Shown here: piece after piece, positions 6,875-44,298 of the stretch
Numbering within the stretch: the stretch's first letter is position 1
How the letters are laid out: every line of letters starts with the position of its first letter
Virus record (IMG/VR): IMGVR_UViG_3300037882_002578
Coordinates: 1 to 64,000 of that record
Origin: a virus
Length of the DNA: 64,000 bases
Direction: 5' to 3' (one strand)
Program-made: the position numbers and the translations under genes
The notes under the pieces: model-generated
Told to the model about the DNA's origin: nothing
Databases searched by the model: none
What the model saw: the letters and a program-made list of their open reading frames with translations, nothing else

Positions 6875-7258
6875 TTAATCTTTCAACATTTTAAAAAATA
6901 ATTTCTCTGATTCTTCTACTGATTTTTTACTTTTCTTTAAACTTTCTTTTCTTTGTTTTATAATTTCTTTTGCTCCCATATTAAAAGACTGTAAATTTAT
7001 ATATTCTCCAGGATTTTCAAGTACATAGTCATACCACTCAAAAAGTTTGCTAATTTCTACATTGTTTTTAAGGCAAAATTTAATATCACTCATATTGAAG
7101 AAGTAATCGTTAATCATACAAACTGAACCAATGTCATCCCCAATCCAGTACATCTCAACATCTGAAGCATCTTCAACTTCAAAATATTTTTTAATAAATT
7201 GATCTACTAATTTGTTTGTAAAAGTTTCCCACTTATATAAAGTTCTATCTATTGTCAT
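6875..7258 (-). CDS. hypothetical protein
   Basis: 127-aa ORF, first gene after the promoter at 7276-7307. Confidence 0.7.
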   Translation of the reverse strand: MTIDRTLYKWETFTNKLVDQFIKKYFEVEDASDVEMYWIGDDIGSVCMINDYFFNMSDIKFCLKNNVEISKLFEWYDYVLENPGEYINLQSFNMGAKEIIKQRKESLKKSKKSVEESEKLFFKMLKD

Positions 7259-7340: not shown

Positions 7341-7385
7341 TTTATTGCAATAATAACGCAATTTATATGTTTTTTGCTTAAAATG

Positions 7386-7518
7386 TACAACGTCTTGCTA
7401 CTAGGCGATGTAGCGGGTTAAAATTCACTATTTTTCGGAGTTTGCCAGATTCTCCAAGTACAAAATCATTATTCAATTCAGCCAAATCCCGCTATGACGC
7501 TTAGTAGCTGTTGTAGGT
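7386..7518 (-). mobile_element. attC-like recombination hairpin A
   Basis: TACAAC-5nt-GCTACTAGGCG-ATG-TAGCGGG...CCCGCTA-TGA-CGCTTAGTAGC-T-GTTGTA; central loop homologous to site B. Confidence 0.7.
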
Positions 7519-7622
7519 AGTTGAAATTTTTGTGTTTGTTTTCGGAAAATAATTGTTAATGTCAAAAATATTTACTATTTTCGCATTTCGGATAATTTAA
7601 AATAATTGCTTATGAGGATAAT

Positions 7623-7748
7623 ATGGAGAGTAATTCCAATATACCTGAAGCTACGATAGTAGTATGGTATAAAACGGAGGTTGTCAAATTCATTGCCCTG
7701 GAAGTGGTGAAATTTGGACTAACCTTGCTAATCGAAAGATTTAGCTAA
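7623..7748 (+). CDS. 41-aa peptide with hydrophobic C-terminal half (inside cassette)
   Basis: MESNSNIPEATIVVWYKTEVVKFIALEVVKFGLTLLIERFS, translated by hand; weak promoter-like element upstream. Confidence 0.35.
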   Translation: MESNSNIPEATIVVWYKTEVVKFIALEVVKFGLTLLIERFS

Positions 7749-7953
7749 ACTTAATTTTAGGAAGTCGAATTGTGCTCTAACACCTTTCGGCTTTCTTTTT
7801 TCTGTCTTTATGAGTATCATTAATTGCAATGCAAAAATCAACTATAGAAAACAACACTGCAAATATACAACTAAATTATACATATACAAATATATTGTAT
7901 GTTTTTACATTATTTTAATCTCTGTAAACAAACACAAAAATTTCAAATAACTT

Positions 7954-8250
7954 ATGATACAAACTGAAAACATTAGCAAAGAACACTATATTAAGGCAAT
8001 ATGTCCACAATATTTTATAAAACTACCATTCAATAAAAATGAAAAAATAAATGAAACCAAAGTAACTTGTGTATTTATGGGCAACTCTGTAATTGGTCAT
8101 TTAGAATGCGTAGGTATAGAGTATTTCGATAAAATTGATACTGAAATACTTTTAAGTAAAACTTTTGGTAAATGCTCTCCAATTTATGTCTCTGTCTTTA
8201 AAGGAATACCTTTTAATATAGATGAACAACGTAAAAGGTTAATTATTTAA
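7954..8250 (+). CDS. hypothetical cassette protein
   Basis: 98-aa ORF, the only sizeable non-shadow plus-strand ORF in the left arm, lies between the attC-like sites. Confidence 0.65.
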   Translation: MIQTENISKEHYIKAICPQYFIKLPFNKNEKINETKVTCVFMGNSVIGHLECVGIEYFDKIDTEILLSKTFGKCSPIYVSVFKGIPFNIDEQRKRLII

Positions 8251-8502
8251 AGCGTTTCTGTAAAAGTCTTCATCTTTGATTCTTTCTGCTGTACTTTCAA
8301 CACCTAGTATTTTTATTTGTGCAGATTTAGCACTTTCTAAAAGAAATTCACAAAACTGTTCTACTTCGCTGTAAGTTCTGGTTTCAAATTTATGAAGTAT
8401 GTCAAAGGCAACATTTCTAAAAAATTCAGCTTTTGGGTTTGATAAGTCTCTTCCGTTATTATTACTTAAATAGTTTATAATCTCTTTAATTTCTGTTGTC
8501 AT
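8239..8502 (-). CDS. hypothetical cassette protein
   Basis: 87-aa ORF starting about 50 bp after the GTT of site B. Confidence 0.65.
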   Translation of the reverse strand: MTTEIKEIINYLSNNNGRDLSNPKAEFFRNVAFDILHKFETRTYSEVEQFCEFLLESAKSAQIKILGVESTAERIKDEDFYRNALNN

Positions 8503-8548
8503 TTTATGTTTTCGTGTTTTTCAACGTTTTCGGCTTTTCTTATCAATT

Positions 8549-8685
8549 ACCTACAACGTTCTCGCGCTACAGCGGGTTTGGGGTTAAAAATGCGTAATCT
8601 TTCGGATTTGCCAAATCATCCCAAATACAAAACCATTTCCAAATTAAGCTAATTGCCCAAATCCGTTGTAGCGTGTGTTATTAAT
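8549..8685 (-). mobile_element. attC-like recombination hairpin B
   Basis: CTACAAC-5nt-20-bp arm (8563-8582)...arm (8656-8675)-T-GTT; the three arm mismatches are all G-T wobbles on the + strand. Confidence 0.7.
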
Positions 8686-8690
8686 AATCA

Positions 8691-8729: not shown

Positions 8730-8978
8730 TTAAAGTTTTGCTAAAATATTTTGCTTAACAATTACTAAGTATTCTTTCCCTTCATTTACTAGTTTTGTAC
8801 CTGAATCTTCAGATAATTTTAAAGTATCTCCTTCTTTTAATTTAGAAATTACTTCCTCTCCTACAGATATAACTTTAACCGTATTATTAAATACCTTTTC
8901 TGTACTTACTGTAATACCATTAATTTTATTATCTTCAAGTATTTTTTCTACAATTATTCTTTCGCCGAATGCCTTCAT
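8730..8978 (-). CDS. groES: co-chaperonin GroES
   Basis: KAFGERIIVEK, VKVISVGE, LKEGD, EYLVIVKQNILAK typical of Cpn10. Confidence 0.9.
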   Translation of the reverse strand: MKAFGERIIVEKILEDNKINGITVSTEKVFNNTVKVISVGEEVISKLKEGDTLKLSEDSGTKLVNEGKEYLVIVKQNILAKL

Positions 8979-10810: not shown

Positions 10811-11275
10811 TTATGTACTCTTTAATTTATTTCTTGTTAATTTATTTTTTATTTCGCCGAAAAAGTAAATTACAGACTCTTTAAATACTTCAAAAGGAGT
10901 CATCTGAGCTACTTTTATCCTACCATAAACTTCAAAGATATCTTCTTCTACAAAGTACTCTCTTCCATCTTTAAACTGAATCAAAGTTCCAAACTCTTCA
11001 GCTTCTACTGCGGTAGAAAAATCAGTCATATCTAAGAATCTATTTTGAAAGTCATAGGTAAACTCACCTTCTTCTAACTTCATAAAACCATCTTCAGATA
11101 TTAAGTTCTCTTCATTTAAAAGTTCCTTTGGGGGCTTCATCCCTAGCTTGTCATAGAAATCTAAATCGTACTCTGAATCAGAACTTTTAGAAGTAGCTTT
11201 TTTAACTTTTTCTTCTCCTTTCTCGCTAAGTATTGTAATAACTTCAGTGAAAAAGACGTAATTTACTTTTTTCAT
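10811..11275 (-). CDS. hypothetical acidic protein
   Basis: 154-aa ORF. Confidence 0.7.
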   Translation of the reverse strand: MKKVNYVFFTEVITILSEKGEEKVKKATSKSSDSEYDLDFYDKLGMKPPKELLNEENLISEDGFMKLEEGEFTYDFQNRFLDMTDFSTAVEAEEFGTLIQFKDGREYFVEEDIFEVYGRIKVAQMTPFEVFKESVIYFFGEIKNKLTRNKLKST

Positions 11276-43254: not shown

Positions 43255-44298
43255 ATGAGTTGTAAATTAAATTGGTATAACTTACCTAAAGAAATAAATA
43301 AAATTATAAAACCTTATACAAACATAAAAGTATATTGGTACAACTTGCCAATGTCTCTTGATAAAGTTTATAAAGAGATACTTTTTTTAAAACCTTCTTG
43401 TAACTCAACTAAAAAGTTTCAATGGTTTTCTTTAAACAAAAAAGCAGAAATAATTTGCGAATTAGTAGATTGTTTAAGTACAAATGAAATAAATTTTGAT
43501 GTAACTTCATTCGATTGGGGAAGTATTGTAGACGCTAATAGTCTTAAGATAGCTTTAGAGATGCAGTCAGGAGAAACTACAAATACAATATCTAATTTTA
43601 GTTTAATTGGAGGTAGACTAAGATGTAACGTAACCAATATAATAGAAATGTACTTGAATTCTTTTAATATTATAAATGTAAAAGAAATAAGTATTGCAGG
43701 ATTAACTCGTTTAGGCTTACAAAGTAACCAAATAGTCACATTTAACCCGACAGTTCCTTTACCTTCAAGCTTAACACATTTAGATTTATCTATTAACCAA
43801 ATAATTACATTTAATCCAAATATACCTTTACCTTCAAGTTTAATAAGTTTAGGATTAAACAGTAACCAAATAGTCGCGTTTAATCCAACAATTCCTCTAC
43901 CTTCAAGTTTACAATTTTTAAGGTTAGGTAACAACCAAATAACTAATTTTAACCCAACAATTCCTTTACCTTCAAATTTACAGACTTTACAACTAGGCGA
44001 AAATCAAATAATTACATTTAATCCAACAATTCCTTTACCTTCAAATTTACAGACTTTAGAACTAGACATTAACCAAATAGTCGCGTTTAATCCAACAATT
44101 CCTCTACCTTCAAGTTTACAAGAATTAAATTTACAAAGCAATCAAATGACAACACAAGGTTATGTAAATAGTGAGCCTTGGGCAAACTCCATGAGTATAG
44201 GTACAGGTATTATTAGATTTAACAATAACACTAACTCTGCTTCAGGTACAAATTTAGTATCTATATTGCAATCTAAAGGATACACAGTAATCGTATAG
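43255..44298 (+). CDS. leucine-rich repeat protein
   Basis: 23-aa repeats NQIxxFNPTIPLPSxLxxLxLxx. Confidence 0.9.
   Translation: MSCKLNWYNLPKEINKIIKPYTNIKVYWYNLPMSLDKVYKEILFLKPSCNSTKKFQWFSLNKKAEIICELVDCLSTNEINFDVTSFDWGSIVDANSLKIALEMQSGETTNTISNFSLIGGRLRCNVTNIIEMYLNSFNIINVKEISIAGLTRLGLQSNQIVTFNPTVPLPSSLTHLDLSINQIITFNPNIPLPSSLISLGLNSNQIVAFNPTIPLPSSLQFLRLGNNQITNFNPTIPLPSNLQTLQLGENQIITFNPTIPLPSNLQTLELDINQIVAFNPTIPLPSSLQELNLQSNQMTTQGYVNSEPWANSMSIGTGIIRFNNNTNSASGTNLVSILQSKGYTVIV
43726..44150 (+). repeat. six 69-bp tandem LRR-coding units plus a partial seventh
   Basis: unit starts at 43726, 43795, 43864, 43933, 44002, 44071, 44140. Confidence 0.9.

Follow-up and report, generated by a model that had tools for sequence, protein, structure and literature searches.

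A putative integron-like gene cassette common to a phage genome and an array of Flavobacterium turcicum

Can a phage that encodes no intact integrase carry a gene cassette of an integron-like system? The question is raised by a locus that lies between groES (positions 8730–8978, minus strand; PF00166; 82% in a related phage) and a gene for a 127-aa protein (6875–7258, minus strand; phrog_35741), in a series of small minus-strand genes. The original prediction was of a single integron-like cassette bounded here by two attC-like hairpins, A and B, with no integrase nearby. The phage genome is complete (135.9 kb, with a 99-bp terminal repeat), and its terminase has 46% identity to that of Cellulophaga phages phi17:2 and phi4:1. 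We analysed its first 64 kb (64,000 nucleotides, the window), to which positions refer unless genome coordinates are stated. A DNA search of annotated phages and plasmids with the locus gave no match. In our judgement, positions 7391–8556 are very probably one cassette of an integron-like system that occurs in Flavobacterium and in its phages.

Hairpin sites A and B and the unit between them

Both hairpins were found where they had been predicted, with AAC at 7389 and 8555 and GTT ending at 7512 and 8679. Site A (7389–7512, minus strand) would be the cassette's own attC-like site, and site B (8555–8679, minus strand) lies at the opposite end of the unit. The predicted geometry held: 5 nt separate AAC from the first arm and 1 nt separates the second arm from GTT, and the arms, of 21 bp in A and 20 bp in B, have no bulges. 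In the cassette direction, site A reads AAC, 1 nt, 21-bp arm, loop, arm, 5 nt, GTT. DNA folding gave structures more stable than those of shuffled sequences, and the plus strand, named in advance as the folded one, folded better (z = −2.9 for A and −3.8 for B, as against −2.4 and −2.0 on the minus strand). As read from the sequence, six of the seven arm mismatches are G-T wobbles on the plus strand. A and B have 62% identity across the core and match each other at E ~5e-6 in the 136-kb genome. Outside A, the flank is complementary at 15/17 nt to the one that follows the GTT of B, whereas the sites' own flanks pair over only 6 nt (A) and 3 nt (B), again as predicted. Neither site fits the attC boxes RYYYAAC and GTTRRRY, and both are without extrahelical bases. 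In layout the locus is a CALIN, with two sites and no intact integrase nearby; the sites themselves depart from canonical attC.

Counted from the TT in the GTT of B up to the G in that of A, the unit measures 1,166 bp (7391–8556, minus strand). It starts with a G/TT crossover and partner arm (8541–8557, minus strand) that have G at +5 and A at +8 after GTT; these bases are found in 99/120 and 118/120 host cassette starts, respectively. At the other end, the outer arm of site A (7510–7526, minus strand) would pair with the cassette start in the circular form over 10 bp, one mismatch and 4 bp. When the ends were joined in silico, the junction of the 1,166-bp circle folded at −28.3 kcal/mol, compared with −19.9 kcal/mol for site A in the linear form. 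Neither a circle nor an empty site of this cassette was observed. A search for empty sites with the flank pattern returned only the one related phage from viral contigs and nothing from metagenome contigs. Four sequencing runs contained no joint across the cassette, which is uninformative either way; no run covered half of the stretch, and no RNA run was among those listed as matching it.

The picture of a cassette bounded by A and B required one correction. Site A travels with the cassette, as proposed; site B instead terminates the previous unit, of which no cargo is left, and its G/TT would be the cassette's target. B is also found behind groES in the related phage. We considered B as the end of a gene-bearing cassette and rejected this; no partner start is present upstream within the groES region. 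The outer flank of B (8677–8689) forms an almost perfect palindrome of 12 bp, which would be expected of an empty cassette; it is not kept in the related phage. The phage flank following the last GTT (7360–7390, minus strand) has neither the G at +5 nor the A at +8 that are typical of cassette starts and is therefore probably native phage DNA, that is, a secondary target.

The cargo includes ORF87 (8239–8502, minus strand), which encodes a helical protein and is read in the cassette direction, and ORF98 (7954–8250, plus strand), which is convergent with ORF87 and overlaps it by 12 nt. Both have 91% identity to F. turcicum proteins (WP_166139187.1 and WP_166139189.1, respectively), which are neighbours in that species, and further copies of both at 90% identity were found in Logan, ENA and JGI. 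Neither ORF gave a Pfam, PHROGs or PADLOC family, a usable Atlas match or a fold match, and the predicted models are of low confidence (pLDDT 38 for ORF98). A 41-aa peptide (7623–7748, plus strand) has a hydrophobic C-terminal half and no family match. It is followed by a conserved non-coding stretch (7762–7867, minus strand) with a hairpin and T run on the plus strand (7762–7801) and a consensus promoter box of the Bacteroidota type on the minus strand (7860–7867), pointing toward the peptide gene and directed into its terminator. In F. turcicum, conservation covers the 111 bases directly behind site A and the sequence from 7762 on, whereas the intervening peptide gives way to a different short ORF. 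The stretch is a candidate antisense RNA and the peptide a candidate type I toxin; conceivably, the two may form a type I toxin–antitoxin pair that stabilises the cassette. A second copy (76%) of the terminator/antisense-promoter stretch lies near another site in F. turcicum (G003:C1:470952-471115). The cassette also contains an 85-bp inverted repeat (75%) between 7515–7599, before site A, and 7872–7952, the ORF98 leader. Within it, a promoter-like box (7563–7570, minus strand) reads out of the cassette through site A.

The same unit in F. turcicum and the rules of the host sites

The 5.8-kb contig NZ_JAAOBY010000016.1 of F. turcicum consists entirely of ORFs separated by sites of the A/B kind. 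One of its units, of 1,206 bp, is the counterpart of the phage cassette, with 83% identity overall and 91% over the two ORFs. It has the same ends, which agrees with the prediction that 7391–8556 is a single cassette. Inside the two ends, phage and host are identical at 21/25 and 26/30 positions; outside each end, only 11/30 positions match. The site upstream of the F. turcicum unit belongs to a subfamily other than B and a different cassette comes next; therefore, as in integrons, only A moves with the cassette. Judged by sequence comparison, the unit moves whole, ends at G/TT, and its two ends re-form one long hairpin. The cassette is present in one of the 401 Flavobacterium genomes searched. 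What is novel at this locus is that one putative cassette occurs, end to end, in both a host array and a phage, which supports the view that phage and host draw on one integron-like gene-swapping system.

A true cassette could also have been gained by homologous or illegitimate recombination with a host array through the similarity of the sites, for example by a UvsX-like recombinase. This phage does encode a UvsX-like protein and is without an intact tyrosine recombinase, site B belongs to a high-copy host subfamily (79–85% identity to host sites), and the same route has been raised for phage CALINs (PMC9892861). Such recombination would, however, place junctions anywhere within the sites, whereas the homology to the host ends at both G/TT points, the upstream sites of phage and F. 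turcicum differ, and phage DNA directly follows the last GTT. We therefore regard this route as very unlikely and retain exchange at G/TT as the preferred reading.

The pairing of cassette ends was analysed in 99 consecutive site pairs from 13 host arrays. The 7 nt outside AAC paired with those after the previous GTT at 6.6/7 positions; pairing within the same site was 3.1 and random pairing 3.0 (p = 4e-17). Further out, position 8 never pairs and positions 9–12 do, and the end pairing of the phage cassette follows exactly this pattern. Of 94 reconstituted circles, 99% fold better on the bottom strand and 99% fold better than the linear form. Compensatory changes were found in 16/19 arm pairs, compared with 2–6 in slid controls, a count that is inflated by related sequences. 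An ungapped 20-bp stem with a 1-by-5-nt spacer and without extrahelical bases is formed by 82/115 host sites; the other 33 were not resolved. AAC and GTT are invariant, and the full boxes RYYYAAC and GTTRRRY occur in 6/120 and 5/120 sites. Site A has 78–82% identity to host sites of its own subfamily. In a set of only 10 arm pairs, G-T mismatches had seemed biased to the top strand; this was rejected, being due to one position and opposite over 20 pairs.

Host arrays next to a tyrosine recombinase, which the original prediction had anticipated, were found as co-oriented sites behind one recombinase family. F. turcicum has four PF00589 genes: those for XerC and XerD, one for a longer integrase and one, situated at the end of a contig, for a 347-aa enzyme. 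Relatives of the last (E < 1e-60) are present in 66/121 Flavobacterium genomes. A covariance model built from 13 sites was run on 20 recombinase loci chosen for long contigs, not at random. It detected ~140 sites downstream of and co-oriented with the recombinase gene, and four upstream on the opposite strand at two divergent loci; 13/20 loci have at least four sites. A conserved attI-like motif that ends in GTT lies 100–170 nt behind the recombinase stop codon and is where the first cassette starts. Its flank matches the outer arm of the first site exactly over 10 nt in 6/13 arrays. The motif was not found in this phage. About 88 of 99 host cassettes have their main ORF in the cassette direction. 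The linkage of recombinase to array is positional and the activity of the enzyme putative.

Whole-genome scans of five Flavobacterium genomes gave from 36 to at least 150 sites each, in a main array, other clusters and single sites, some of them far from the recombinase. Copy numbers of this order, the single sites and the B family, which is multi-copy and abundant in freshwater metagenomes, could suggest separate REP- or MITE-like repeats, or structured RNAs, at A and B, with flanks that match by chance. Independent repeats cannot, however, yield sites that each pair with the flank of the previous one. Moreover, the host copies separate ORFs in recombinase-linked arrays, each with a single orientation; no target duplication was seen, an Rfam search of the window gave no match, and the whole unit recurs in the F. 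turcicum array. We consider this explanation largely refuted and its remaining probability minimal, and continue with the sites as ends of cassettes.

The array recombinase and its traces in phages

The catalytic residues R-K-H-R-H-Y are invariant in eight host enzymes. The F. turcicum enzyme aligns to residues 6–185 and 245–318 of VchIntIA (2A3V), with 17 residues in place of 59, so that the I2 insertion is absent; it also differs from VchIntIA in having ~70 extra N-terminal residues. It reaches 198 bits in two stretches against TIGR02249 (cut-off 265), falls below the curated NCBIfam cut-offs for integron integrase, XerA, XerC and XerD, and scores higher against archaeal XerA than against the integron integrase model. 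In integrons, the I2 helix contacts the extrahelical bases of attC, of which the folded bottom strand has two (PMC3053210). Here the enzyme is without I2 and most sites are without extrahelical bases, and these matching absences therefore fit a separate enzyme–site pair. Of the original labels, attC-like and integron-like, the G/TT crossover and the cassette behaviour stood; the sites do not qualify as canonical attC, nor the enzyme as an IntI. The data support a system that works like an integron and is not a classical one.

The affinity of the enzyme to the archaeal XerA model, its lack of I2 and the absence of extrahelical bases from the arms of 82/115 sites would also suit cassettes recombined in double-stranded form, in the manner of Xer/dif, or as cruciforms by host XerCD, the hairpin being a by-product of symmetric binding sites. 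In that case, neither the free variation of arm sequence with pairing kept nor the preference of G-T mismatches for the bottom strand (149 vs 53) would be expected. Partner sites have only GTT in common at the crossover, an overlap too short for a double exchange, and the arrays follow a recombinase that is neither XerC nor XerD. Double-stranded recombination is thus very unlikely, and we keep to recombination of a folded single strand.

As predicted, there is no integrase near the cassette: the window contains no recombinase gene, and the sole PF00589 match in the genome is a C-terminal remnant (genome 126242-126343), ~17 kb from the cassette on the circular map. In the remnant ORF (113 aa, genome 126194-126535, minus strand), a Mom-like start runs on into 49 C-terminal residues of the array recombinase, which retain only the last H and Y of the catalytic set. 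The remnant has 40–55% identity to the host family and 32–35% to XerC/D; its best match is an intact phage-encoded member with an array of its own (57% over 49 aa). The fusion looks like a deletion scar. Beside the remnant lies a second array (genome 126484-127960) of five partly decayed sites, in which the genes face against the sites. Genes with this polarity are also found in cultured Flavobacterium phages. At this position the related phage carries other cassettes, with one short site in common. Thirteen sites of the family lie among small genes and methyltransferases, annotated as hypothetical only, in the cultured Flavobacterium phage lillamy9-3 (MN812214; L029:2346-8963). A second layout, with the array upstream of the recombinase gene and on the other strand, occurs in some host members (L043, L051) and in all phage members (L083, L085, L090, L106, L112).

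The proposal of a host system was therefore borne out in that host arrays exist, and has to be widened to phages: relatives of this phage encode a version of the system, and the phage itself retains a remnant and a second array. From polarity only, we infer that the cassette most likely came from a host array, because its sites fall into subfamilies of the host and ORF87 has the orientation usual there, in contrast to the second array, where the genes are flipped.

Three further features of the phage genome were noted. Identical 28-bp inverted copies (window 10841-10868 and genome 125932-125959) are probably a phage promoter repeat. A 347-aa ORF (43255-44298) contains a tandem coding repeat with a ~69-bp unit at window 43702-44150. 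Finally, a reverse-transcriptase-like ORF (312 aa) flanked by two related ORFs (140 and 149 aa; genome 123341-125335, minus strand) resembles a diversity-generating retroelement.

A single related phage could be compared, in the form of two contigs (IMGVR_UViG_3300040771_000271 and 3300040770_000293) that are identical over 7 kb where compared. It gave no PF00589 match. One contig carries site B after groES and then the cassette leader known from our phage; the ORF start that comes next is a different one. The other starts within an A-like site and has an extra 961-bp cassette exactly at A's G/TT; this ends in a third site, nearly identical to one site of the F. turcicum array, after which comes the flank that follows A in our phage (7360–7390). 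The expected difference between related phages was therefore seen as a whole-cassette difference at G/TT; an empty site of 7391–8556 was not. The three ORFs of the 961-bp cassette recur in another Flavobacterium, where they form a lone 923-bp cassette whose ends match. In the phage, the ends of the 961-bp cassette pair only with a 2-nt slip, which is an apparent sign of decay. The lone cassette (L061:1440-2372) lies behind the apparent end of thyA, and its target is similar to the attI-like motif. In both assemblies of the related phage, the sequence breaks off within the cassette array at the contig start, which may mean that the population is mixed in cassette content.

Cassette movement and the relation to integrons

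In the model that we propose, the recombinase would bind the folded bottom strand (here the plus strand) and cut AA/C opposite G/TT. The cassette, which carries putative promoters of its own, would be excised as a circle through the joining of site B to site A and inserted at another G/TT; as in integrons, the single-strand exchange would be resolved by replication. Site B may have come first, into a secondary target between groES and the gene for the 127-aa protein, and would then have received host cassettes. The enzyme could have been supplied in trans by the infected host, or by the phage itself until its gene was lost to the deletion.

The likeness to integrons (IntI, attI, attC) extends to co-oriented cassettes of ORF plus site, the G/TT crossover, ends that re-form a site on circularisation, one strand that folds better, and a fixed first site beside a tyrosine recombinase. 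At ~125 nt, the sites are as long as those of the sedentary chromosomal integron of Vibrio cholerae (VCR, 120–130 nt). In contrast to attC, however, most sites here form an unbulged 20-bp stem with a 1-by-5-nt spacer and pair at their outer ends over 10 bp, a mismatch and 4 bp. The arrays also differ from those of integrons in lying mostly downstream of, and co-oriented with, the recombinase gene.

CALINs of virulent phages, including that of Polaribacter phage P12002L, were identified by means of canonical attC models, and IntI1 was used to test them (Qi et al. 2023, PMC9892861). Like our locus, they consist of at least two attC-like sites around small genes in a phage without integrase; unlike it, they are without a demonstrated host array or cognate enzyme. 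The site model of the Flavobacterium family found nothing significant on P12002L (best E 0.067). Lone cassettes and small clusters far from the integrase recall SALINs and attG insertions, in which IntI inserts cassettes at secondary sites of bacterial chromosomes (Loot et al., 10.1101/2022.09.11.507474); here, the target would be a phage genome and the enzyme a non-IntI. An integron-like subgroup of recombinases in which the insertion is not fully conserved has been described, and the insertion was yet called essential for integron function (Smyshlyaev et al. 2021, PMC8138268); the accessible text of that study links no cassette arrays to members without the insertion. IntegronFinder 2.0 reported one complete integron in Bacteroidetes (PMC9024848). 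In Bacteroidota, surveys for integrons yield next to nothing because they seek the IntI insertion and canonical attC sites. Our literature search, whose coverage mostly excludes subscription journals, returned no account of these arrays.

On balance, we lean towards a broader view, in which Bacteroidota have a separate, widespread integron-like system whose I2-less, Xer-like recombinase would act on folded single-stranded sites without extrahelical bases, and in which lytic phages would take cassettes from host arrays during infection, so that both share one exchangeable pool. The enzyme and its sites provide a direct test of the need for the I2 helix and extrahelical bases in single-strand recombination; if the view is true, folded substrates can be recombined without the domain held essential for it. 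The locus also supplies a named, cultured host species, F. turcicum, for the sharing of cassettes with phage. With the recombinase family in over half of the sampled genomes, a large putative gene-capture platform has been missed in Flavobacterium, a genus with fish pathogens and intrinsic resistance genes.
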